64,000 nt of DNA from an uncultured Oscillospiraceae bacterium (lineage in GTDB: Bacteria; Bacillota; Clostridia; Oscillospirales; Oscillospiraceae), in the NCBI GenBank assembly GCA_947624895.1, contig CANQMK010000001.1, forward strand, positions 4,270 through 68,269, in the 5' to 3' direction. The notes under the pieces were generated by a model, which ran no database searches, had not been told where the DNA came from, and saw nothing but the letters and a program-made list of their open reading frames with translations. Position numbers and translations under genes: made by a program. Each line of letters opens with the position of its first letter. Position 1 is the first letter of the stretch. This document shows positions 6,001 to 61,918 of this stretch, in pieces.

Positions 6001-6788
6001 CCGGGGACACCGTCACGGTCAACGCCGACGTGACCTACACCGCGCGGTGGAACGTGCGGGTCGCCTCGGGCAGCGGCAGCGGCCGGACTCCTTCCCCCGC
6101 CATCGACAGGACGGAACACTACGGCTACATCATCGGCGTGACGGCCCATGAGGTCCGGCCCGAACAGGACATCACCCGGGCGGAGGTCGCCACCATCCTC
6201 TTCCGCCTCCTCACCGACGAGGCCCGGGAGGCCAACTGGAGCGAGACGAGCGGCTTCCCCGATGTGCGGAGCGACGCCTGGTACAACCACGCCGTGGCGG
6301 TGCTCCACAACCTGGGCATCGTCCAGGGTGACGGTCACGGCAGCTTCGATCCCGACGACAAGATCACCCGCGCCGAGGTGGCCGCCATGGTGGTCAGGTT
6401 CTACGAGAAGAGCGAGGGGACCGTCCTTGTCAACCGGTTTACCGACGTGGATGAGACGAAGTGGTATACCCAGGCGGTGCTCCTGGCCGACCACTACGAG
6501 TTGATGCAGGGCGACGGGGACCAGTTCAGGCCGGAGGACCCGCTGACCCGCGCCGAGGCCATGGCGGTGTTCAACCGGCTCCTGGGCCGTAAGCCCCACG
6601 AGGATCATCTGCGCGAGGATATGATCGCCTGGACGGACAACATGGATAAGCGCAAGTGGTACTACGCCGAGGTCCAGGAGGCCACAAACTCCCATACGTG
6701 CGGCGGGGATGTGGTGATCGACGGCGAGACCTACGAGACGTGGGAGAGCGTCGAGCCCATGCGCGACTGGGCCGCGCTGGAGCGCTGA
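1..6788 (+). CDS. Giant cell-surface protein, 5'-truncated by window edge (beta-helix region, Cys-rich repeats, Flg_new-type repeats, C-terminal SLH anchor)
   Basis: Frame open from base 3 to TGA 6786-6788. NGGxIxxN beta-helix-like repeats. Six CxxC...GH units. About 12 repeats with the GYxFxGWS signature. Three SLH-like motifs (ITRAE, WY..AV) in the last ~240 aa. Confidence 0.85.
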   Translation, partial: AFSRLSLALHSLTGGETIYLTDDIKVGFAAKLPDGVGDVTINGQGHTITRDSFVNPNTILTDPELGDEAVMSILMDPGISLAALEDEGEAGAIPQEHYTGAILQVGKGDTVTLQNVTIDGEGQWEIDQEKLEYEKELNKSYDIDVLEDPRGGHPIRELLGNVVSTDSLIKVAGGALILEDVTLENFFAGDGYEDDRHFIDFTSTEDGKLEVTGAGAVFQHNASRSGVCIGNTDKNEIDLGGCTTMEDNYCYGGNGGLVVAMEGTQVYMDEGTKILNNVAADTNGVFVQLHKKTDGVKDGDNKGETYAKLHMNGGEIGHNVGLRGGSYGWGQTIYLYNGGAFEMNGGEIHDNIGAGISSIYQQPSADALRLNGGWIHGNTCSLTDEGTDWALDIALMNIGNVGEGMTVEQNFVVGAAAILGGYASGDEYLTNDGTIKGNISVYSYFNNEGRVSTVVNNHIIDGNIRLENGSMIKNAENGVITGNVTVRGSLTESAGESSFHNEGDIKGDIELAEGAHLYNSGEVYGNVTVKSGGTLELNCNEEGTVHGGTIHGNVTVYPDGLLYAKVSPALVDGTITLEYEDEEDLARMKEVLHDCGIQCSNIVEKQHAHSEVLDKTVIEPDDDKKCTEPWVTVYVCQTCGKEVSREETTPTGHQYYVEKVDEATCTTGPIEHIRCKLCNAYTSSTAMKIQVGDPNGHTYVENTHLYIPPTEYASGHIYYICTTCGDVLEFEIDKVHEGYTKHSFQNEDGSLKEEAGVLTPPTCTAEGEMTFTCDDCGTTITVPVPAAGHRFPRDPDEYEQIERVESGCTKEGHITYKPRCTVCGEFDTSSGAYTYTVNLPALGHDWSEWENVDSENYFCTTERLQERHCKRMDAEAEAVAEGDGDEEEARIICDDPSNATETRLGGETSHTWDEDNITCLVCGYVSTGHHISYMTNGGIAPQSLADIAGTAYKPGNTESLWRPSSDETLEGGVWTKQTINGQAVFVGWSATNLGETPCEKKPEVTFIASVVIPADADATVFAVWAADKNKNGTPDYQETPVSVFYDKNGGAGDVPAPLIDVLPGAAYPLETTPALTKGAYVFAGWSRTRYDEVIKTPLEERDIEMARSLVTSPFTVPAGVGDVTLYAVYATDADADGKPDYCKDALHVEYYINGGQVREGYTVDESGMFYVCNDYHHPGDDATLLALEYGAMMICRDGAVLIGWSAAPEDLITSEASVDGKPIKAVNLTSAESNAKVYALWAADVNHNSIADYLETTLTHTYHRNQYLSQSNASTLPAGYSLHVTKAEPPFQVDILPGTGVELAPNDYFDSADLLDDKGQVVGHYVQVGWSGYSHGACTSRIDYENWVIAGEANGYTDEDGVYYRVIYDTRFQNAFAVWASDENENGIADFKETYYTITLNINGGTGGDDFQRQSVLLDGEWFTFPADPIKAGYTFRGWSSDGGKTLRQAGDTFRVTADVTYVALYDEVAFTVTLDLNGGTAGDDFAASNPVNAGESFTFPADPTKAGYTFLGWSAEGDENLYKAGDTVTVTADVTYTAQYEAVAAPKTFQVTLDLNGGTAGEGFTTKNSVKEGESFTFPADPTKAGYTFLGWSAVGDENLYKAGDTVAVTADVTYTARYEEVAVTPKTFTVTLDLNGGTAGEGFTAKNSVKEGESFTFPADPTKEGYTFLGWSSDGGKTLYKAGDTVAVTADVTYTAQYEAVAAPKTFQVTLDLNGGTEGEGFTASTTVKEGESFTFPADPTKEGYTFLGWSAEGDETLYKAGDTVTVTADVTYTAQYEAVAAPKTFTVTLDLNGGTAGDDFATSNPVNAGESFTFPADPTKAGYTFLGWSAEGDENLYKAGDTVTVNADVTYTAQYEAVAAPKTFQVTLDLNGGTAGDDFTAKNSVKEGESFTFPADPAKAGYTFQGWSAAGDETLYKAGDTVAVTADVTYTAQYEAVAAPKTFTVTLDLNGGTAGDDFAASNPVNAGESFTFPADPTKAGYTFLGWSAEGDENLYKAGDTVTVNADVTYTARWNVRVASGSGSGRTPSPAIDRTEHYGYIIGVTAHEVRPEQDITRAEVATILFRLLTDEAREANWSETSGFPDVRSDAWYNHAVAVLHNLGIVQGDGHGSFDPDDKITRAEVAAMVVRFYEKSEGTVLVNRFTDVDETKWYTQAVLLADHYELMQGDGDQFRPEDPLTRAEAMAVFNRLLGRKPHEDHLREDMIAWTDNMDKRKWYYAEVQEATNSHTCGGDVVIDGETYETWESVEPMRDWAALER
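4186..6047 (+). repeat. Eight tandem coding repeats, period 237-240 bp (79-80 aa, TxTLDLNGGT...GYTFLGWS...TADVTYTAQYEAVAAPK)
   Basis: Direct reading: units start near 4186, 4410, 4648, 4888, 5125, 5362, 5599, 5836. The last seven are near-identical at DNA level. Confidence 0.9.
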
Positions 6789-8535
6789 GACCCGCGCGCG
6801 GGCGGCGACCATCCGCACGCGCCCCCGCGAGGACGCCGCGAAAAAGCGAATACACACGAAAGGGCCGCCTGTCGAGAGACAGGCGGCCCTTTGTCTTGGC
6901 GGGAAAAGACGCCGCGGCGGAACACGCGCGGGGACGCTCATGAAAAAGTCGCCGTGAGCGAACGCTCACGGCGACGTGGTGGCCCCCAGGAGAATTTGTA
7001 AGAACCCCAGGGCCATCGCATACAACTTCTTCCGGGGAGTTCGGGTCGTCCTTGTCTGTAAGGGTGAAGCTCAAAATTTCGTCCTTGTCTGTGTAGTAAT
7101 AATGGATCTCGATTTTGTCATCCCATAGATAGACCGCCTTAACGAATGTGTCAATGAGCCTCTTTTGGTACTCCTTACTTTCCACGGCACCATCCCGGAA
7201 CTGTTCCATGGACCAGATGATGCGCTCCTTCTCAACATGCCTCTCCTCCTGGGCCGCCTTGGCCAGCACAATGGTTTTCTCCAGCTCGGCGATTTCTCCC
7301 TCCAGTTCCAACAGGCGATCTTTCGTGGTGACGGTGAAAATGCCCTGCTCGATGGCGGTCATAATGTTTTTGACCGCCTTCCTGTTTTGGGACAGCTCCG
7401 CTTCCAGCCTGTCGATTTCCTCTTTACTGCCTGACTGCTCCAGTATTTTGATTGTTCCGTCGGCTATCCACTCTATCACATCATCCCGGAGGATAAACCG
7501 CTGGGTCAACTCGGCCACCGTTCGCTCGATGAACTCCTTTTTTACACTCTTCTTCTGGCATCCGCCGCCTCTCAGGTGTCCGTTACAGGTATAGTAATAG
7601 TGCTTGCTCCCAGTGTGGCTGGTGCCGGATATGCCGACCATGTAGGACTTGCAATAACCGCAGTGCAATTTCCCAGTGAGGAGATAATCCCCACTTTCCC
7701 GGTGCTTTCCTCTCGGATTTTTCTTCGTGGTCAAATGCCGTTGCATTTTGTAGAACACCTCCTTCTCGATGATTGGAGGGATGCCGCACTCATTGACATA
7801 GCCTGAGTGACGATATACGCCGATATAATTGTCGTTGGTGCAGAGACGATGAAAGCTGTTTTTATTCCAGGGCTTCTTCTGCTTTGTCTTGATCCCCCTG
7901 GCGTTGAGATCGGCGGCAATCGAGGCGAAGGACTCCCCATCCAGCACTCTGCGGTAGATCTCCCGGACAATGGCCGCCTCTGCCTCATCGATGGCGTATT
8001 TCCCGTCCGGCCCTCTGACATAGCCGAGCGGGAGAGATCCATTGACCTTGCAATTCCTGGCGTTGTCCTCCATGCCGCGCTTGATGTCCTCTCCCATGTT
8101 CTCGGAGTAGAACTGATTTACATTCATCATAGTACGCAGGGCAAAGCGGCCGGCGGCGGTGTTGCCGAATTCCTCTTTGGCATATAGGGTCTCAATGCCA
8201 AGCCTTGCCAGCCTGTCCTCATAGCTGAGAGCGTGGAGCATATTCCGTGCGATGCGGTTCGATTTGTAGGCTATGACTACCGCAAACTCACGTTTCTCCG
8301 CGTCCCGAAGCATTCGCTGGAAGTTGGGCCGCTTATCCGTTTTCCCGGTGATGGCCTTGTCGGCGTAGACCCGGAGCACCTTGATGTGCTGGGCGACGGC
8401 GAAGGCCATGCACTCCTCGACCTGCTGCTCGATGCTCTCTTCCTTTTGCGCATGAGATGAAAATCTGGCATATATCACGCCTGGCCTTTCGTCCGCCATC
8501 TCCGCGGAGCCCATTCTGCGCGGCAAAAACATCAC
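6571..8535 (-). CDS. Large serine recombinase (prophage integrase) with about 150-aa non-homologous C-terminal read-through
   Basis: VIYARFSS..Q catalytic Ser region, resolvase core, recombinase/zinc-ribbon region (CGYC...C..HLRGGGC), coiled coil. Likely start is M at 8499 or 8514. After about 7000 the ORF becomes Arg/Pro-rich antisense of host DNA. Confidence 0.85.
   Translation of the reverse strand: MMFLPRRMGSAEMADERPGVIYARFSSHAQKEESIEQQVEECMAFAVAQHIKVLRVYADKAITGKTDKRPNFQRMLRDAEKREFAVVIAYKSNRIARNMLHALSYEDRLARLGIETLYAKEEFGNTAAGRFALRTMMNVNQFYSENMGEDIKRGMEDNARNCKVNGSLPLGYVRGPDGKYAIDEAEAAIVREIYRRVLDGESFASIAADLNARGIKTKQKKPWNKNSFHRLCTNDNYIGVYRHSGYVNECGIPPIIEKEVFYKMQRHLTTKKNPRGKHRESGDYLLTGKLHCGYCKSYMVGISGTSHTGSKHYYYTCNGHLRGGGCQKKSVKKEFIERTVAELTQRFILRDDVIEWIADGTIKILEQSGSKEEIDRLEAELSQNRKAVKNIMTAIEQGIFTVTTKDRLLELEGEIAELEKTIVLAKAAQEERHVEKERIIWSMEQFRDGAVESKEYQKRLIDTFVKAVYLWDDKIEIHYYYTDKDEILSFTLTDKDDPNSPEEVVCDGPGVLTNSPGGHHVAVSVRSRRLFHERPRACSAAASFPAKTKGRLSLDRRPFRVYSLFRGVLAGARADGRRPRAGLSAPARPSRAWARRSPTSRRSRRRSPHPRRTYGSLWPPGPRRSTTCAYPCCPSRRSYPRADDPRGAYGPGAG
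6861..6897 (+). terminator. Intrinsic terminator of the surface protein gene
   Basis: Perfect 13-bp stem AGGGCCGCCTGTC/GACAGGCGGCCCT, loop GAGA, followed by TTGTCTT. Confidence 0.75.
6943..6975 (-). terminator. Minus-strand intrinsic terminator lying inside the integrase reading frame
   Basis: 13-bp stem GTCGCCGTGAGCG/CGCTCACGGCGAC with a 2-nt loop. On the minus strand it is followed by TTTTT (plus-strand AAAAA 6943-6947). Confidence 0.65.
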
Positions 8536-54411: not shown

Positions 54412-55104
54412 ATGGCAACGAACTGGATCGGCGTGATCACAAACGCCGGAAACGCTCTGCTCAACGCCTGGGTTGGCGGGAAGGTCCTGAATTTTGATGG
54501 GGCTGAAGGCGGCACCGGCACGGTGCAAGAGGTCGCCATCATCGCACAGACCGCCCTGGTCAACAAAAGGCAGGACTTGAGCATCCTCGGTGCTGAACGG
54601 CTCCCCGAAGGCTACCGATTGAAGCTCCGTGTCCCGCCCTCGGATGAGGGCTATGTCCTCAACCAAATCGGCATCAAGGCCACCGTCACCGGCGGCCAGT
54701 CCACCATGCTGGCCCTGTTCCAGCACGAGCAGGGCATTGTCATTCCCAGCAAAACAGAGATCCCGGATTTTCAGTACACCTTTTACGCCCTGGTCTCCTG
54801 TTCCAACACCGGGCATTGGACGGTGACGCTTGACCCCACCGTGTTCATCACGCGCGGCGAATTCGCCGCCGTTATGGAGGGCGTCATCCGCGGACGTATC
54901 GTCGGCACGGCCAAGGACAGAGACGCCGACCGGCCTACCTACGGCATGGATGAGGATGCGCCCAACGAGGATGTTGTGTTACTCACCGGGCCGTACACGG
55001 GCAAGCACAAGGCTGCAGTTGAGTTGAGTGGAGAGCTGTACGACGCTCTCAACATCAGTCTGTCCGAGGCCCAGGCCTCTGACGGCGACCTCATACTCTC
55101 ATAG
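54412..55104 (+). CDS. Tail fibre protein (tail-collar N-terminal domain)
   Basis: ITNAGNALLNAW..G..L.F......GTG... pattern; position. Confidence 0.5.
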   Translation: MATNWIGVITNAGNALLNAWVGGKVLNFDGAEGGTGTVQEVAIIAQTALVNKRQDLSILGAERLPEGYRLKLRVPPSDEGYVLNQIGIKATVTGGQSTMLALFQHEQGIVIPSKTEIPDFQYTFYALVSCSNTGHWTVTLDPTVFITRGEFAAVMEGVIRGRIVGTAKDRDADRPTYGMDEDAPNEDVVLLTGPYTGKHKAAVELSGELYDALNISLSEAQASDGDLILS

Positions 55105-55117
55105 GGAGGCAATCACC

Positions 55118-55588
55118 ATGAGCGACAAGAAGTACCTGGAACGGGCCACTCTCGATGGGGTGCCTTTCGACCTGTGGACAAAGGCCTCTCTGGTAGAGGT
55201 GACCTACAACGGCACGGCTATGACCCTGGCCGATGCCATGGTGGAGATCTACGCCGACCTGTCCGAAGTCATCACCCCGGATGAGGTAGACGCCAAGATC
55301 TCCGCCGCAATTGGAGCGTTGGTCAACGGCGCCCCGGAGACTGGCGACACCCTCAAGGAGCTGTGCGACCTCATCGGCGACAATAAGGACGCCATGCGGC
55401 TGCTGAACGAGGCCATCGGGAAGAAGGTGGACCGGGTCGAGGGGAAGGGCTTATCGACCGAGGACTTCACCTCCGCGCTCAAGGCCAAGTTGGAGACCCA
55501 GCCCACCATCTTGCCGTTGGGCAAAGATGATGAACTGCCCGCCGGCCTGGCGGACGGCACCATCATTGTCCGCGGCATCACGGTGTAG
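55118..55588 (+). CDS. Tail fibre-associated protein
   Basis: GAPETGDTLKELCDLIG fibre repeat motif. Confidence 0.45.
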   Translation: MSDKKYLERATLDGVPFDLWTKASLVEVTYNGTAMTLADAMVEIYADLSEVITPDEVDAKISAAIGALVNGAPETGDTLKELCDLIGDNKDAMRLLNEAIGKKVDRVEGKGLSTEDFTSALKAKLETQPTILPLGKDDELPAGLADGTIIVRGITV

Positions 55589-55617
55589 ATCACACAATCT
55601 GATTGGAGGAAACCGAT

Positions 55618-57165
55618 ATGGCAATCCAGCAAGTGGACGGCGCCCTGTCCATCGTCATCAAGGGCAAAGAATATCTGCTCATGCCCATCACAAGGGGCGG
55701 CAACATCGAGAACGACGCCGTGACTATTGACGCGCTGGCCGACAATGACGAGATCCTCATTTGGGATGCCAGCGACAAGAGCACGGCCAAAAAGACCACC
55801 TGGGTCGAGGTCAAGCAGTCTGTGCGGGAGAGCATCCCGATCCTCTATCCGCAGATCGTGGTGTCCGTCTCCACCGGCTCCTCGGTCACCTGCTCCAACG
55901 GCGGCACCACCAAGACTGCCCAGGCCGTCGGCGGCGTGGCCACCTTTGAGGTCACCGAGTACGGCGCCTGGACGGTCAAGGCCTCCCTGTCAGGTCAGGA
56001 GTCCTCCAGCGAGGTCATCCAGGTGGATGCCGTCAAAAAATACCCTGTCACGCTCCACTACGCCTCTGTGTTCGGCGTCTGCTGGGATCCGTTGAATCCG
56101 TCCACGGCCCTGGCCCGGCTCACCCAGTCGAGCGACCCCAACGGCTTTGTCACAGTGAATATCAGCACCGAGCCTTCGCCCGCCGTTGGCACCGGGTCGG
56201 GCAGTTCGCCGTTTGACCGCTATGCGCCGTGGAGCCAGATGGACGAATACAACATCGTCAACGGCACTGTCGGCCCGTGCAAGGGGGACGCTGGTTTTTC
56301 CCGCGGGCGTGACACGATGGTTTATATTCCGGAGTTCTGGTTCAAGTTCATGGAGACCGGCGGCAAGCGGTATTTCTACATCGCCGACAAGCCCAAGGAC
56401 GGCTTCGGGCTGCATCCTGGCTCCGGCAAGTATCTGAGCCGCTACTCCATGAGTGAGGACGGTATGTCTAAGACCGGGGTTGCTCCGCTCACGGAGATCA
56501 CCCGCGGGGAGGCCAGGGAGAAAGCCAGGGCCAAGGGCGAAAAGTGGAGCCAGTACGACTACATCACCTGGAACGCCGTGTGGCTGCTCTACCTGGTCGA
56601 GTTCGCCGACTGGGACTGCCAAAAGAAAATCGGTCGAGGCCGTGTTGACATGACGTGGTCGGATGGCAAGGCCGACAACGGCGGTACCGACACCATGTCC
56701 TACCACACCGGGCGGGCCGCCGGCGAAGACGGCAAGACCTGCATTCAGTACCGCCACCTGGAGAATATATGGGGAAATGTCTTCTACTGGATCGACGGTA
56801 TCAACATCAACGTCTTTGACGTGTACATCTGCACGGACCACAAGCTGTACGACGATGATACGGATGTCGGCTACGAATGTATCTACACGACCGACATCAA
56901 TGATGACGGCGGCTACATCAGCGCCATCGCCTCACCCCCGGAAAACGCTCCGTGGGCGTTCCTCCCATCTGGTATCAGTGGGAGCGAGACGACCTACATC
57001 CCGGATTATGGCTATTACTGGGGCGAAAGCGAAGAGTGGTATTTGCCGTGCGGCGGCGGCGGCTGGTACGACCGCTCGGATGCCGGCCTCTTCCAGTTCG
57101 GCGCCGACTATCTGTCGGATGAGACGGGCTCGAGCGACGGCGCGCGACTCCTTTTTAACCCCTAA
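55618..57165 (+). CDS. DGR target: receptor-binding tail protein with C-terminal CLec/FGE-sulfatase-like variable domain
   Basis: YRHLENIWGNVFYWIDG motif. The last 40 codons are the VR matching the TR. Confidence 0.8.
   Translation: MAIQQVDGALSIVIKGKEYLLMPITRGGNIENDAVTIDALADNDEILIWDASDKSTAKKTTWVEVKQSVRESIPILYPQIVVSVSTGSSVTCSNGGTTKTAQAVGGVATFEVTEYGAWTVKASLSGQESSSEVIQVDAVKKYPVTLHYASVFGVCWDPLNPSTALARLTQSSDPNGFVTVNISTEPSPAVGTGSGSSPFDRYAPWSQMDEYNIVNGTVGPCKGDAGFSRGRDTMVYIPEFWFKFMETGGKRYFYIADKPKDGFGLHPGSGKYLSRYSMSEDGMSKTGVAPLTEITRGEAREKARAKGEKWSQYDYITWNAVWLLYLVEFADWDCQKKIGRGRVDMTWSDGKADNGGTDTMSYHTGRAAGEDGKTCIQYRHLENIWGNVFYWIDGININVFDVYICTDHKLYDDDTDVGYECIYTTDINDDGGYISAIASPPENAPWAFLPSGISGSETTYIPDYGYYWGESEEWYLPCGGGGWYDRSDAGLFQFGADYLSDETGSSDGARLLFNP
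57042..57153 (+). repeat. DGR variable region (VR)
   Basis: 112-nt gap-free match to 57407-57518. 13 mismatches, all at TR adenines. Confidence 0.9.
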
Positions 57166-57172
57166 TGGGGGA

Positions 57173-57192
57173 CCGGGGGCCGCAGCCCCCGG
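57173..57192 (+). promoter_or_regulatory. GC hairpin downstream of VR (DGR target-recognition hairpin/cruciform candidate)
   Basis: CCGGGGGC-CGCA-GCCCCCGG, 8 nt after the stop codon. Absent after the TR. Confidence 0.65.
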
Positions 57193-57406
57193 AAACCTAT
57201 CAGCAAGCACCACGTTTTTGGTGAGTGGCGCAGGGTGCGGCAACGGCCCTTTATACCGAGCGAAGCGAGGTCGGCGCCAATTTTGAAAATAACAATATTC
57301 GTTATTTCATCTCAAATCCATGGGCGGCGGGACGACCGCAGCCTATAATTCAGGCAGGGATTGCCTACGCTCTGCGTCGGGCCTTGTGCTTCGGATGGGT
57401 GGGCCG

Positions 57407-57518
57407 TTTGCCGTACGGCGGCGGCAACTGGAACAACCGCTCGAATGCCGGCCTCTTCCAGTTCAACGCCAACTATCTGTCGGATGAGACGAACTCGAAC
57501 GACGGCGCGCGACACCTT
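57407..57518 (+). repeat. DGR template repeat (TR)
   Basis: Asn-codon (AAC)-rich invariant copy of the VR, 127 nt upstream of the RT start. Confidence 0.9.
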
Positions 57519-57645
57519 GTTTGCACGACAACTATATGCGTAGGTTCTCCCCCACCGCTTGGTGAAAATATTGCCGAGTAGGACAGGGCTCAGTAGGTTT
57601 ATTCTCGACCAGCCTTGCAGGCAAACAAGGAGTGTGCTTCCTACC

Positions 57646-58872
57646 ATGCCGAAACGAGTAGGCAACATCTACGCCCGGATGGAGGCCCCCGACTTCATCC
57701 GAAGGTGTATCGCGATCGGGACAAGAGACAGCAAGAAGCGGCGCCGCCGGGACGTGCGCCGTGTACTTGCCGACCTGGACGGCCATGTGGCCACGATGCA
57801 ACGCATTGTGCGGGAGCGGTCCTTTTGCCCTCGCCAGCCGAACCAGAGGACGATCTACGACGTCAGCAGCCAGAAGAACCGGGACACCAACAGTGTCCCG
57901 TTTTTCCCGGACGCCCTCATGCACATCATGGAAGTCCAAGCCATGATGGATGTCCTCATGCGTGGGATGTGCCACTGGTCGTGTTCCTCTGTCCCTGGCC
58001 GGGGAGGGAGGCGGGTGTACCTCCGGCTCAAGAGCGCCATGAAGAACGACCCGAAGGGGACACGGTACGCCGCCGAACTGGACGTCAAGAGCTACTATCC
58101 GAGCCTGCCGCTGGACAGGCTCATGGAGGCGTTCGAGCGTAAGATCAAGGACAGGGAATTTTTGCTTCTGCTGGCCCTCTCCCTGACCTGCCGCCCCATC
58201 TCGCTCCAGGAGGCCAAAGACCAGGGCCTCACATGGAGGGACATCACCCAGGGGCGCCGGGGGCTGTTCATCGGCTTCTACCTCTGCCAGTGGGCGGCCA
58301 ACTACTACCTAGAGCCGCTCGACCGTTTCATCATGACCCTGCCCGGCGTGAAGTACATGACCCGCCACATGGACAACATCACCCTGCTGGGGCCGAGCAA
58401 GCGAGATCTCCACAAGGCGGTGAACGCCATCCGGGACTTTATGGGCCGGGAACTGGGGCTGACCATGAAGGAGAACTGGCAGGTCTACCGCACCAGCTTC
58501 ACCGCCGCCGTGGAGAAGCGCCACCGCCTGCTGACGGAGAGGCAACGGAGGCTACGCCGCCCCCGCATGGTGTCGGCAGTGGGCTACCGCTTCGCCCACA
58601 CCCACGTCACCATCCGCAAGCGGAACTTCCTCCGGCTCACCCGGCAGGCCCGCCGGACGAAAAAGCGGATAGAGGCGAAGAAGCCCATATCCCCGCGGCT
58701 GGCCGCCGGCCTTTTGAGTCGGATCGGCCAGCTCAAGCACAGCAACAGCTACAACGTGAGGACGAAATACATAGACCCCATCGGGGTCAAAGTTCTAAAG
58801 GAGGTCGTGCGAAATGAGAGTGCGAGGAAGTGTTGCTCCCAGCAACGCCTTTACAGTGGAGGAGCAGCCTAA
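57646..58872 (+). CDS. DGR-type reverse transcriptase with atypical HMDN catalytic box
   Basis: RT motifs 1-7 are readable. IGFYLCQWAANYYL corresponds to the DGR IGxxxSQ..AN.YL motif. Motif C reads RHMDN. Confidence 0.8.
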   Translation: MPKRVGNIYARMEAPDFIRRCIAIGTRDSKKRRRRDVRRVLADLDGHVATMQRIVRERSFCPRQPNQRTIYDVSSQKNRDTNSVPFFPDALMHIMEVQAMMDVLMRGMCHWSCSSVPGRGGRRVYLRLKSAMKNDPKGTRYAAELDVKSYYPSLPLDRLMEAFERKIKDREFLLLLALSLTCRPISLQEAKDQGLTWRDITQGRRGLFIGFYLCQWAANYYLEPLDRFIMTLPGVKYMTRHMDNITLLGPSKRDLHKAVNAIRDFMGRELGLTMKENWQVYRTSFTAAVEKRHRLLTERQRRLRRPRMVSAVGYRFAHTHVTIRKRNFLRLTRQARRTKKRIEAKKPISPRLAAGLLSRIGQLKHSNSYNVRTKYIDPIGVKVLKEVVRNESARKCCSQQRLYSGGAA

Positions 58873-59224
58873 CAAGCCGGGGTTCTGCCTGATCCGCTTC
58901 TTCGAGGATGTTCAGCCCTACGAAGAGGAAGGCCCCCATGGGAAGCCCATCACCGGCTTTGAGTACGACGAGTACCATCTTGAGGTCGCCGACTACGACG
59001 GCCTGGAGAACGACGTGCTCAATGGGTTTGACGGGTATCTGGCCCAGGCGAAGCTCCAGGAGGCCGAAGGGAAGATCATCCCCGCCCTTCAGACCCAGGT
59101 GGCCGCTCTGGAGCTGGAAAAGGCCGAACTGACCGACAAGGTCATTAACTTGGAGGGACAGGTCACCGACACCCAAATGGCCCTCTGCGACGTCTTCGAG
59201 CTGGCGTTGGGAGGTGAGCGGTAA
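58814..59224 (+). CDS. Hypothetical tail-associated protein (XkdW-position) with C-terminal coiled coil
   Basis: RBS AAAGGAGG 58798-58805. Overlaps the RT 3' end by 59 nt. Confidence 0.45.
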   Translation: MRVRGSVAPSNAFTVEEQPNKPGFCLIRFFEDVQPYEEEGPHGKPITGFEYDEYHLEVADYDGLENDVLNGFDGYLAQAKLQEAEGKIIPALQTQVAALELEKAELTDKVINLEGQVTDTQMALCDVFELALGGER

Positions 59225-59349
59225 TGGCCAGGGTATACGCCGAACTGATCCGCAAGGGAAAGAAGACCATAGAGGATGTGCCGGAGTTTCTGAGGAAAGA
59301 AGTACAGGCCATCCTCGAAGCGATGGAAAAGGGAGCTGAGGGCTTATGA
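59224..59349 (+). CDS. XkdX-family small protein (41 aa, below track cutoff)
   Basis: Hand translation MARVYAELIRKGKKTIEDVPEFLRKEV... Confidence 0.5.
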   Translation: MARVYAELIRKGKKTIEDVPEFLRKEVQAILEAMEKGAEGL

Positions 59350-59402
59350 AAAGCCTTCAGCTCTTTCTTTTACACATTCTGCTGAGAAAGGAGGTCAAGG
59401 AC

Positions 59403-59519
59403 ATGGCTGTTGTCTATGCGACGCTGATCGTCAAGGGCAAGAAGACGCTCGAACAGGTCCCGGCTCTGTTGCGGACTGAGGTCGAGGAGATCATCGAGGC
59501 CCTGGAGGTCAAACTGTGA
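59403..59519 (+). CDS. Second XkdX-family paralogue (38 aa)
   Basis: Hand translation MAVVYATLIVKGKKTLEQVPALLRTEV... Confidence 0.5.
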   Translation: MAVVYATLIVKGKKTLEQVPALLRTEVEEIIEALEVKL

Positions 59520-59591
59520 TCGCTGACGGCGGGGGTGACAAATGCCACTCCCGCCGCCATCTATCTATCAATCCACCAGGAGGGACCAGCA

Positions 59592-60014
59592 TTGAGCCTC
59601 GATGAAATTCTTGCCAGGGGAGGAGCGGCGCTTACCGTCATTATGACGCTTGTCCAGATCTCTCCCATCAAAATTTACCCGTGGTCGTGGCTGGCTAAGG
59701 CCTTTGGCCGGGCCATCAACGCGGAACTGATCGCGAAGATCGACGCGCTGGAAAAGAAGGTCGAAAAGCTCCACTCCAGGGACGGAGAGAAGGAGGCCAT
59801 CGACCAACGCAACCGCATCCTCCTATTTGCGGATGAGGCCGTGCGTAACATCAAGCACTCCGAGGAGCACTTCAACCAGATCCTCAGAGACATTACAGAG
59901 TACGAGGCGTTCTGTAACGCCCACAAAGACTTTGAGAATGAACGGGTGGTTTTGACCTGCGCCAGGATCAAGGAGATCTACAAGAGGTGCCTTGAGACGG
60001 GCGATTTTTTGTGA
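59592..60014 (+). CDS. Membrane-anchored protein of lysis region (holin-associated candidate)
   Basis: TTG 59592 after AGGAGG (the track start 59535 is less likely). One TM, AALTVIMTLVQISPI, then a helical domain. Confidence 0.4.
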   Translation: MSLDEILARGGAALTVIMTLVQISPIKIYPWSWLAKAFGRAINAELIAKIDALEKKVEKLHSRDGEKEAIDQRNRILLFADEAVRNIKHSEEHFNQILRDITEYEAFCNAHKDFENERVVLTCARIKEIYKRCLETGDFL

Positions 60015-60030
60015 GAAAGGAGTGATCACC

Positions 60031-60924
60031 ATGGGCTTCAGCCCGCTGTGTACTTACATCAGACTGTCCCCAAACCATACCCACCCCCGCAATCATTCCA
60101 TCGACCGCCTCACGCCCCATGTGATCGTCGGTCAATGCACCGCCAGGCAGGCGGCAAACCTCTCCCGGTTCGTCAACTACGACGGCAAGAGCGGCGCTTC
60201 CTGCAACTACGCCATCGGGCGGGACGGTGATTATGCTGGCCTTGTGGACGAGGGTGATCGTTCTTGGTGTACGTCGAACCGGGAGAACGACCACAGGGCC
60301 ATCACGTTTGAGATCGCCTCCGACCCCCAGCACCCCTACGCCATCACGGACGCCGCGTATCAGGCCATGCTCGATCTGATGACCGACATCTGCAAGAGGC
60401 ACGGCAAGACGAAGCTCTTGTGGTTGGGCGGGAAGGAGGCCACTCTTGCCTACAAGCCCGCCGCCGACGAGATGATGCTGACGGCGCACCGATGGTTTGC
60501 AAACAAGGCGTGTCCCGGCGACTACATCTATCTCCGGGAGGGGGAGATCGCCCAGGAAGTCACCCGGCGGCTCGCTCTCCCGGCAACCAACGACAACAAG
60601 AAGGAGGACATCGACATGAGCAAAGAAGAACTGCGCGAGACCCTGGTGGACATCATGAAGACGGAACTCCGCCCCGTCATCAAGGAGGTGGTGGAGGAGG
60701 TCTACAACGAGCTCAATCCCGTATATGCTGACATCAAGGACGTGCCCGCATACTGGCGCCCCCTCGCTCAGAAGTTGCTGGACGATGAGGCCGTCAACGG
60801 CGGCACCGAGCGGGATGTCTGTGATACGGACGTGAACCTCCGGGCCGAGACGCTGAAAGCGGCGGTAATCGCCGTCCGGCATTATATGGCCGCATCCAAC
60901 GGTGAAGGGGGTGAGCGGGTATGA
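60031..60924 (+). CDS. Endolysin, N-acetylmuramoyl-L-alanine amidase (Amidase_2/PGRP type)
   Basis: LSPNH..R...ID.L.PH...........NY.IG.DG......E.D.SW.......N...I.FEI. Confidence 0.75.
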   Translation: MGFSPLCTYIRLSPNHTHPRNHSIDRLTPHVIVGQCTARQAANLSRFVNYDGKSGASCNYAIGRDGDYAGLVDEGDRSWCTSNRENDHRAITFEIASDPQHPYAITDAAYQAMLDLMTDICKRHGKTKLLWLGGKEATLAYKPAADEMMLTAHRWFANKACPGDYIYLREGEIAQEVTRRLALPATNDNKKEDIDMSKEELRETLVDIMKTELRPVIKEVVEEVYNELNPVYADIKDVPAYWRPLAQKLLDDEAVNGGTERDVCDTDVNLRAETLKAAVIAVRHYMAASNGEGGERV

Positions 60925-61352
60925 CCATCAATGCGCTGCGCCTGGGCCTCGGCCTGCTCGCTCTGATCGCCGTCAACATCATCCTGGGGAGCATCGACGC
61001 CTTCCTGGACAAGAGCTTCGACCGGGGCAAGTTCCTCCGGGGCATCATCAAGGGGGCGATCGTGGCCGCGTGCTTCGCGGTCACCTACCTGATCGGTTGG
61101 CTGAACCCCGATGTGCTGGCCGTCACCATCAACGGTGAGGCGGTTAATCTGCTGACGGCGGTTACTCTGGTCGTCATGGCCGGCTTCCTGTTTTATGCCA
61201 AGGAGGTCATCATCAAACTGGCGGTATTCGTCCATGGCCAGGTGGACACCGGGGAGTTGGTGGTGAGCGCCACCGGCAACGGCGGGAGGAACACCGTGCG
61301 GGCGGCAGACCAGCACCCCCCCGATGCCGGTGAGAGTTCGCCCAACGCATAA
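60921..61352 (+). CDS. Holin (3-4 TM)
   Basis: ATGA coupling to the endolysin gene; hydrophobic spans; charged C-terminal tail. Confidence 0.55.
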   Translation: MTINALRLGLGLLALIAVNIILGSIDAFLDKSFDRGKFLRGIIKGAIVAACFAVTYLIGWLNPDVLAVTINGEAVNLLTAVTLVVMAGFLFYAKEVIIKLAVFVHGQVDTGELVVSATGNGGRNTVRAADQHPPDAGESSPNA

Positions 61353-61356
61353 GAAA

Positions 61357-61396
61357 GCCCCCTCCGGGAGATCACTTCTCCTGGAGGGGGCTTTTT
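61357..61396. terminator. Bidirectional intrinsic terminator between convergent genes
   Basis: 15-bp stem GCCCCCTCCGGGAGA/TCTCCTGGAGGGGGC (one G-U pair), flanked by AAA and TTTTT. Confidence 0.75.
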
Positions 61397-61411
61397 GTCG
61401 TCTGTGGGGGA

Positions 61412-61918
61412 TTAAGCTGGCGCGTTATCCAGCCCTGTCAAGATCTCCATCAACCGTTTGCGGTTTTCCGCTGACGGCTGGGCCTGGCCCTTCTCCCAGC
61501 GGGAGATCTGCGCCTGGGTGACACCCACCAACTCGGCAAGCTGGGCCTGGGAGAGCTTCTTGGCCCGCCGGCGGCCCTCGATGTCCAGGGAGTCCGCCGG
61601 AGGCGCCAAGGGCTTGCCGGCCCGTGCGTGGTAGTAGCCGATCTGCCAGGAGCCCTGTACCTCCAAGGGCTGGACGGACTCGGGCTGTTGCTCGTCTACC
61701 CAGGTTATTTCCTCGAACGCTGTTCCGATCTTTTGATCCAAGCCCTCCAGGACGCCTTCACGGGATGCCGCCTGGATCGCGATTGCCGTAGAGGACAAAA
61801 TGCGGAGTGATGGGGTGGGGTTTCCGGGGATGCCCCTATGGTTTTTGCGGTGTAATGCCTCCTCAATTATCCCGTAGACCCATCCAAATACATAAGCCTC
61901 TCTGTGCGTCATGATCAT
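61412..61918 (-). CDS. Protein with unknown N-terminal domain and C-terminal XRE-type HTH
   Basis: KKLSQAQLAELVGVTQAQISRWEKG. Start probably ATG 61912 (better RBS spacing). Confidence 0.6.
   Translation of the reverse strand: MIMTHREAYVFGWVYGIIEEALHRKNHRGIPGNPTPSLRILSSTAIAIQAASREGVLEGLDQKIGTAFEEITWVDEQQPESVQPLEVQGSWQIGYYHARAGKPLAPPADSLDIEGRRRAKKLSQAQLAELVGVTQAQISRWEKGQAQPSAENRKRLMEILTGLDNAPA

Follow-up and report, generated by a model that had tools for sequence, protein, structure and literature searches.

Diversity-generating retroelements (DGRs) have been cataloged by the thousands, many of them in the tail fibers of phages that infect gut bacteria. Here, we describe a DGR in a 64,000-nucleotide stretch of contig CANQMK010000001.1 (hereafter, the window), which comes from an uncultured Oscillospiraceae bacterium. 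One of the most closely comparable systems described is the DGR of Bordetella phage BPP-1, which is laid out as mtd-VR/avd/TR/Sp/brt, where VR is the variable repeat, TR is the template repeat, Sp is a spacer region, and brt encodes the reverse transcriptase (RT) known as bRT. The two elements have in common a target at the tip of a phage tail fiber with the VR at the extreme 3' end of its gene, adenine-specific transfer from TR to VR, and a GC-rich initiation of mutagenic homing sequence in the VR (IMH) with a counterpart in the TR (IMH*). They also share an 8-bp GC stem with a 4-nt loop that follows the VR only, and the predicted RT fold is closest to that of bRT. Unlike the BPP-1 element, the locus described here has no avd that we could find, and its RT is 80 aa longer (408 versus 328 aa) and carries very basic extensions at both termini. 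Motif C of the RT reads HMDN rather than YMDD, and motif 4 contains CQ rather than SQ. Furthermore, the spacer RNA is RT-18 instead of RT-10 (PMC5737381), the hairpin loop is CGCA instead of GAAA or GRNA (PMC3240598), and IMH and IMH* are one base apart.

The locus also resembles architecture A1 of Wu et al. (2018), which consists of a target, a TR, and an RT only. We recognized no gene here for Avd, HRDC, MSL, or CH1, the four accessory classes named in the text of that survey. It departs from this architecture in carrying a conserved 136-aa open reading frame (ORF) that overlaps the RT gene and falls outside those four classes (PMC5758913). In kind, this is an ordinary DGR, and its value is in the details. 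A preliminary description, made from the sequence alone, had read the locus as a tail-fiber DGR, and we found every part of that reading: an adenine-specific VR/TR pair, a GC-rich IMH, a VR-only hairpin, an adjacent RT, and a lectin-type target. We consider it nearly certain that the element is a functional DGR in the tail-fiber module of a prophage with a P2-like baseplate, residing in a Gram-positive and probably clostridial host.

Adenine-specific variation between the repeats and among natural alleles

When VR and TR were compared base by base, they aligned without gaps over 112 positions at a constant offset of 365, just as had been claimed (Table 1). Each of the 13 mismatches coincides with a TR adenine (11 A>G and 2 A>T). 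On realignment, the TR again contained 25 adenines, the 87 non-adenine positions were identical in the two copies, and there was no mismatch at a non-adenine template position. The probability that 13 mismatches would all land by chance on 25 adenines among 112 positions is 1.5e-10. When the adenines were masked, the TR pattern occurred twice in the window (zero expected); because it was found only twice, the window contains no second target.

In the frame of the target gene, the TR adenines lie at the first two positions of eight codons (seven AAC and one AAT) and in a few other codons. These AAC and AAT codons appear in the VR as GGC, TAC, GAC, GAT, and AGC, a set that includes the four replacements previously noted and adds GAT. 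Within the mutable tract, 12 of 12 adenine changes are at codon positions 1 and 2. The sole third-position adenine of the TR belongs to CGA codon 510, which is inside the unmutated IMH tail. With 23 TR adenines, the mutable tract could give rise to about 7e13 variants at the DNA level and about 4e13 at the protein level.

The 3' ends of the repeats set one mismatch apart from the others. The IMH in the VR (GGCGCGCGAC-TCCTT) and the IMH* in the TR (GGCGCGCGAC-ACCTT) differ by a single base, which is T at 57149 and A at 57514. Homology had been said to end at the GC block GACGGCGCGCGAC, but the alignment extends for another 5 nt (T/A, then CCTT). In 35 of 36 unique related loci, the VR ends in CTCCTT, while the TR tail is CACCTT, CTACTT, CTGCTT, or CCCCTT. 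Given that the VR tail is fixed, 12 of the mismatches come from mutagenesis and one (57149/57514) marks IMH versus IMH*. The earlier claim about the 13 mismatches was thus correct in count and location and incorrect in attributing them all to mutagenesis. In CTA-type loci, the tail difference falls on a synonymous third codon position (CTN encodes leucine), and selection on the protein therefore does not explain the fixed C of the VR. This pattern across loci indicates that 57149/57514 is the difference that separates recipient from donor, as in BPP-1 (PMC5758913). Three bases upstream, the adenine of CGA, which is also synonymous, was changed in 0 of 19 unique loci, compared with 43% of TR adenines elsewhere. 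Since this adenine never changes and D507 (GAC, with its A at 57137) varies between alleles, mutagenic transfer must stop within the run GGCGCGCG (57139-57146).

To compare the cassette with its relatives, we used assemblies obtained by exact-protein lookups together with a profile search of IMG/VR, which yielded 80 more loci whose RTs are 44 to 66% identical to that of the window. There was enough upstream sequence to define a TR/VR pair in 53 loci (five from the earlier lookups and the window, 48 from IMG/VR). In one second assembly (L006), the RT and TR are identical to those of the window. Over positions 57050-61793, the VR accounts for 11 of the differences between the two sequences, each at a TR adenine, and the other ~4.6 kb for just 2 (Fisher P = 6e-17). 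Likewise, L002 and L003 have their RT and TR in common and carry different VRs. Among four target proteins from different samples that are 97 to 99% identical, 12 differing positions fall within residues 478-507 and 5 in the remaining 477 residues. One of those 12 differences, S487T (TCG to ACG; residue 487 of P0392, window codon 57076-57078), is a non-adenine change, and the VR of L002 also contains one G>T change at a non-adenine position. Overall, public assemblies hold five VR alleles of the same phage with differences nearly confined to TR-adenine codons, and several contigs end exactly at the VR. The VR is variable and the TR constant between these near-identical genomes, and the comparison indicates that the DGR is active, and has been recently, in natural populations. 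Two broader searches, a megablast of positions 55000-59300 against 50,697 phage records and a scan for the exact A-masked TR pattern in viral, metagenome, and genome collections, returned no match.

The same signal extends to the wider set of relatives. Across the 53 loci, 652 of 683 VR/TR mismatches are on TR adenines. With the IMH tail excluded, 594 of 1374 adenines are changed, compared with 25 of 4746 non-adenine positions. The layout is nearly constant, with a VR-TR offset of 227 to 383 nt and approximately 117 to 171 nt from the end of the TR to the start of the RT. These data bear on the idea that the repeats arose when part of a gene was duplicated and the copies then drifted apart through ordinary mutation or adenine deamination, with no retroelement involved. 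The strong A>G bias in the window (11 of 13 changes) is what such a process might leave. However, A>T (237) and A>C (56) are also present among the 652 mismatches at TR adenines, and it is only one copy that changes while the other stays invariant between genomes. Moreover, mutagenesis stops sharply inside a GC run, and an RT, an RT-18 RNA, and a hairpin are all linked to the repeat pair. We assign this explanation a negligible probability.

A reverse transcriptase with an altered motif C

The RT gene begins with an ATG at 57646, which is 127 nt past the end of the TR as originally stated, and AAGGAG is present at 57627-57632. Among all PDB sequences, the best match to the RT is 8ub7_A, the active-state RT of the BPP-1 DGR ribonucleoprotein. 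This same structure is the best fold match to an AlphaFold2 (AF2) model of the RT (pLDDT of 88.6; E 2e-16; TM-score of 0.87 on the target; root mean square deviation of 2.8 A). An exhaustive search gave 124 full-length cluster representatives, of which 76 have SQ in motif 4; in motif C, 100 have xxDD and 24 have xxDN. Relatives at 30 to 35% identity carry both IGxxxSQ and YxDD. Because of the match to 8ub7_A by sequence and fold, the match to PHROG 1423 ("Reverse transcriptase"), and the SQ and xxDD motifs among its relatives, we tentatively place the RT inside the DGR RT clade. This placement is supported by nearest sequence and predicted fold, with both signatures only partly kept. The nearest named relative is from Anaerotruncus (53% identity), and a search of a genome collection with the RT recovered only an unrelated Nitrospinota locus (24% identity).

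Several observations weigh against a functional DGR. First, the Pfam RVT_1 score of the RT is 28.3 bits, just under the gathering cutoff of 29.6. Second, the HMDN of motif C puts Asn where bRT has the second catalytic Asp of YMDD, and the IGFYLCQ of motif 4 puts Cys where the signature IGxxxSQ has Ser. In the survey of Schillinger et al., both Asp residues were 100% conserved in 155 DGR RTs, and CQ is absent from the listed variants of SQ (PMC3521204). Third, the hairpin loop CGCA is off the GRNA consensus at its first base (PMC3240598). Last, there was no Avd-like match among the ORFs flanking the cassette, where a very divergent copy is possible given that Avd is poorly conserved, and none among precomputed Pfam matches within ~6 kb in related loci. 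About 74% of DGRs have avd according to Wu et al., who also describe an architecture of TR and RT only (PMC5758913). The RT itself is strongly basic (pI of 10.8, rising to 11.9 in the C-terminal 124 aa), and its terminal extensions may replace the nucleic acid binding of Avd.

The motif C change is not peculiar to the window. The MDN motif of the window RT (residues 242-246, MDNIT, 58369-58383) recurs as [Y/H/N]MDN in all relatives with at least 49% identity and in nearly all of the 120 closest homologs. Sister loci at 44 to 48% identity have YMDD together with the same CQ motif, hairpin, and layout. In an alignment of 31 RT sequences, D243 and N244 are invariant, as is Asp146 of motif A. This distribution identifies MDN as a clade-wide variant rather than a private lesion. 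Our literature searches found no paper on YMDN in connection with DGRs or reverse transcriptases, although later catalogs may still record the variant. Nor did the literature searched contain a description of an HMDN motif C, an IGxxxCQ motif 4, or an acidic ORF overlapping the RT.

It is conceivable that the DGR is a fossil, with an RT that is now catalytically dead following the change from YMDD to HMDN and with VR/TR differences that are purely historical. The loss of the second motif C Asp and the subthreshold Pfam score are in line with such decay. However, near-identical genomes contain different VRs alongside the same TR, RT, and flanks. Conservation of MDN throughout the subclade and an RT dN/dS of ~0.2 (estimated against two relatives) also run counter to decay. 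In addition, adenines are changed as often in MDN loci as in YMDD sister loci (fractions of 0.42 and 0.46, respectively). On balance, we judge a fossil element to be very unlikely.

Alternatively, the adjacent RT could serve as an RNA-binding scaffold, with the mutagenic copying done by a different polymerase that comes from the host or from another phage gene. The unusual active site speaks for this reading. Against it, a nonexhaustive search of the window showed no second RT in the surroundings of the cassette or among the scanned ORFs, and neither Asp146 of motif A nor Asp243 of motif C varies. Furthermore, the predicted RT fold lies on active-state bRT at 2.8 A, and the linkage of RT, TR, and VR is strict (53 of 53 loci). 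We consider a scaffold role slightly less probable even than a fossil, and we retain the reading of a functional DGR whose own RT copies the template.

The spectrum of substitutions differs between the two groups of loci. Changed adenines became G, T, and C in 67%, 29%, and 4% of cases in MDN loci, and T, G, and C in 51%, 45%, and 4% of cases in YMDD sister loci (Mann-Whitney test per TR group, P = 0.004, with selection and shared ancestry uncontrolled). The rarity of A>C (4%) fits the behavior of bRT, whose misincorporation is least frequent with dGTP and most frequent with dATP (PMC7826257). The G/T difference could stem from the Asn in motif C, from selection on the binding site, or from shared ancestry. 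We did not accept the A>G excess of MDN loci as a property of the enzyme, for the reason that selection and shared ancestry are not controlled.

Noncoding elements, target gene, and prophage neighborhood

Only RT-10 was tied to a DGR by Weinberg et al. (2017), who speculated that the other RT motifs belong to retrons or DGRs, many of them to retrons (PMC5737381). In the window, the sole Rfam match is RF03021 (RT-18), which is full length and located 5' of the RT gene, as is characteristic of that motif. Here, it lies between a verified TR and its RT. All 12 related loci that were tested have RT-18 in this position (56 to 78 bits), which together with the window makes 13 of 13 loci. Across 30 distinct sequences or loci, compensatory changes affect 9 of the 18 predicted pairs. 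On the strength of these matches, we assign the orphan Rfam motif RT-18 to the spacer of a verified DGR. By analogy, it may be the counterpart of the BPP-1 Sp region, with a role in RT binding and priming.

A GC-rich inverted repeat downstream of the VR is present in roughly one-third of DGRs and is not universal. In BPP-1, the hairpin is required for efficient retrohoming, and Guo et al. described GC stems of 7 to 10 bp with 4-nt GRNA loops located 4 to 34 bp after the VR (PMC3240598). The VR in the window is followed by a perfect stem of at least 6 bp and the TR by none, which confirms the reported 8-bp GC stem and 4-nt loop as a feature of the VR alone. A GC hairpin is found in 52 of 53 related loci, 16 to 26 nt past the end of VR homology, with an invariant CGCA loop and with compensatory stem variants (CTGGGGGC/GCCCCCAG and CCGGGGGT/ACCCCCGG). 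In whole-strand folds, the fold-energy z-scores were unremarkable for both the hairpin region (-1.3) and the TR-spacer RNA (-1.1), and support for the hairpin and the spacer RNA was therefore taken from conservation and covariation. The conserved noncoding block between the hairpin and the TR may be a promoter or operator of the TR-RT transcript. In a simple sigma-70 scan, there was no full plus-strand promoter upstream of the TR and no -35 element matching the TATAAT. Ribozymes were also detected in two related loci, a Twister-sister in L051 (6678-6760, minus strand; 80 bits) and a type-P5 Twister in L078 (11930-11987, minus strand; 54 bits), both above their gathering scores; the window has no such ribozyme.

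The target gene is preceded by Baseplate_J, P2 gpI, and two tail-fiber-like (tail-collar fiber) ORFs. Its family comprises at least 2805 proteins at E <= 0.001 among 8000 candidates scored, which share a C-terminal part of ~440 aa and have N termini of varying length. The target had no match in Pfam (E <= 0.01, including FGE-sulfatase), in NCBIfam, or among PDB sequences, and an exact lookup of the protein returned no record. An AF2 model built from 48 homologs (pLDDT of 76) has low confidence at residues 342-373 and 483-490, the latter being encoded by the VR. The model predicts a beta-sandwich at approximately residues 79-156 and, after it, a C-type-lectin-like domain that includes the VR-encoded stretch. 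Its best structural match is TaqVP (5vf4), the DGR variable protein of Thermus aquaticus, which has a C-type-lectin fold (E 3e-7, probability of 1.0, ~380 aligned columns). Unlike TaqVP, the present target is a tail protein of a phage and has an additional N-terminal beta-sandwich, and the two proteins are distant (18% identity; TM-score of 0.43 to 0.45). Comparison with viral models (BFVD) returned many "tail collar fiber" proteins of uncultured phages, as well as entries with SUMF-like and TvpA-like labels. The previously noted ENxWGNVxxW motif is present as ENIWGNVFYW (residues 382-391), with E382, N383, W385, G386, and N387 invariant or nearly so in the 48 homologs. Assignment of the target to the C-type lectin (CLec)/FGE type, which had been proposed at the outset, is tentative; its basis is the modeled similarity to TaqVP and not a Pfam match. 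Gene position and predicted fold point to a tail-fiber or receptor-binding role.

The DGR target of close relatives is one fiber protein of 750 to 900 aa (e.g., L002 2963-5521, corresponding to 54412-57165 of the window). The window and L001 instead have three ORFs (230, 186, and 515 aa) across this region, which makes the variable tip a polypeptide of its own. A 118-aa ORF at 57225-57581 was rejected both as a gene and as an Avd. It represents the TR read in the VR frame, matches the PHROG tail family of the target, and has no Pfam or NCBIfam match.

Downstream of the RT, an acidic 136-aa ORF overlaps the RT stop in the 59-nt manner in 83 of 84 loci. Its family contains 425 proteins, and in the places examined, homologs occur only directly after this RT clade. 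Searches of PHROG, Pfam, and NCBIfam found no family match for it, and there was no PDB match. The product could be a lineage-specific accessory factor, and it could equally be an ordinary phage gene that always travels with the tail module. A more sweeping proposal would be that the locus represents a separate DGR lineage of gut-type Firmicutes phages that is independent of Avd and in which the RT functions with [Y/H]MDN, the Asn shifts misincorporation toward dCTP (hence A>G-rich changes), and the 136-aa protein is an accessory factor. We regard it as unlikely that these propositions hold jointly.

The remaining genes have the order of a myovirus-type prophage, from gpA terminase, lambda-type portal, capsid E, and tape measure to the P2-like baseplate and then the DGR. 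An amidase endolysin and a helix-turn-helix (HTH) regulator follow on the 3' side. At the other end, the host surface-protein gene and the serine recombinase (Table 1) probably mark the left prophage junction, perhaps with integration into or next to the surface-protein gene. GC content falls to 0.50 at 8 to 10 kb, and the window contains no tRNA genes. The host probably belongs to the clostridia and has a high GC content. Beyond position 61793, which lies within the HTH regulator gene (61412-61918, minus strand), L006 (4760-4801) no longer resembles the window at all; this break is either a contig-end artifact or a phage mosaic boundary.

TABLE 1 Features of the DGR cassette and of the left end of the window
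Feature	Position	Strand	Description
DGR target gene, 515 aa	55618-57165	+	Putative tail-fiber tip/receptor-binding protein; PHROG 5302 "tail protein," E 4e-68
Variable repeat (VR)	57042-57153	+	Codons 475-512 of the 515-codon target gene; mutable tract 57050-57137
IMH-like 3' end of VR	57139-57153	+	GGCGCGCGACTCCTT; 3' limit of mutagenesis inside the GC run
Small stem over target stop codon	57159-57170	+	CCCC-TAAT-GGGG; DNA fold; conserved in 41 loci
GC hairpin/cruciform	57173-57192	+	8-bp stem CCGGGGGC/loop CGCA/stem GCCCCCGG; DNA fold and conservation
Conserved noncoding block	57281-57349	+	AT-rich inverted repeat AAATAAC/GTTATTT at 57287-57307; TATAAT at 57344-57349; conserved in 41 loci
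Template repeat (TR)	57407-57518	+	25 A, including 7 AAC and 1 AAT codon; IMH* at 57504-57518 (GGCGCGCGACACCTT)
RT-18 RNA (Rfam RF03021)	57553-57632	+	63.8 bits versus gathering score of 41.3; full model length
DGR reverse transcriptase, 408 aa	57646-58872	+	Motif 4 IGFYLCQ; motif C HMDN; PHROG 1423, E 6e-70
Acidic ORF, 136 aa	58814-59224	+	Overlaps 3' end of RT gene by 59 nt; pI 4.2; coiled-coil-like C terminus
Surface protein, 2236 aa	78-6788	+	Host gene; Listeria-Bacteroides repeats and SLH
Large serine recombinase	6571-8535	-	Overlaps 3' end of surface-protein gene

Proposed mechanism and significance

The anatomy of the cassette, together with what is known of BPP-1, suggests how the element may work. 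The basic 408-aa RT, whose gene lies immediately downstream, would bind a transcript containing the TR and the RT-18 spacer. The RT would then copy the TR into cDNA, presumably in an RNA-primed reaction as in BPP-1, and would do so faithfully except opposite adenines. The cDNA would replace the VR at the 3' end of the tail-fiber tip gene, where the GC-rich IMH and the GC hairpin downstream of it would mark the recipient. Because the 23 variable TR adenines are mostly in eight AAY codons, repeated rounds could generate the large protein repertoire estimated above on a C-type-lectin-like, ligand-binding face. Variation of that face may in turn alter receptor or host specificity. The steps of priming, the parts played by RT-18 and the hairpin, and receptor switching are modeled on the BPP-1 system.

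The cassette is compact, with two genes (target and RT) and no Avd found, and there is natural evidence for its activity. Adenine mutagenesis persists across a subclade in which Asn occupies the position of the second motif C Asp, a residue that an early survey reported to be invariant. Three features merit the notice of specialists: this Asp-to-Asn change in an element with clear natural activity, the link between RT-18 and a DGR, and the conserved ORF that overlaps the RT gene. If the Asn alters metal binding or misincorporation, then the MDN clade and its YMDD sister clade would form a natural pair for examining how fidelity is tuned in DGR RTs, and together they may help in engineering smaller diversifiers.

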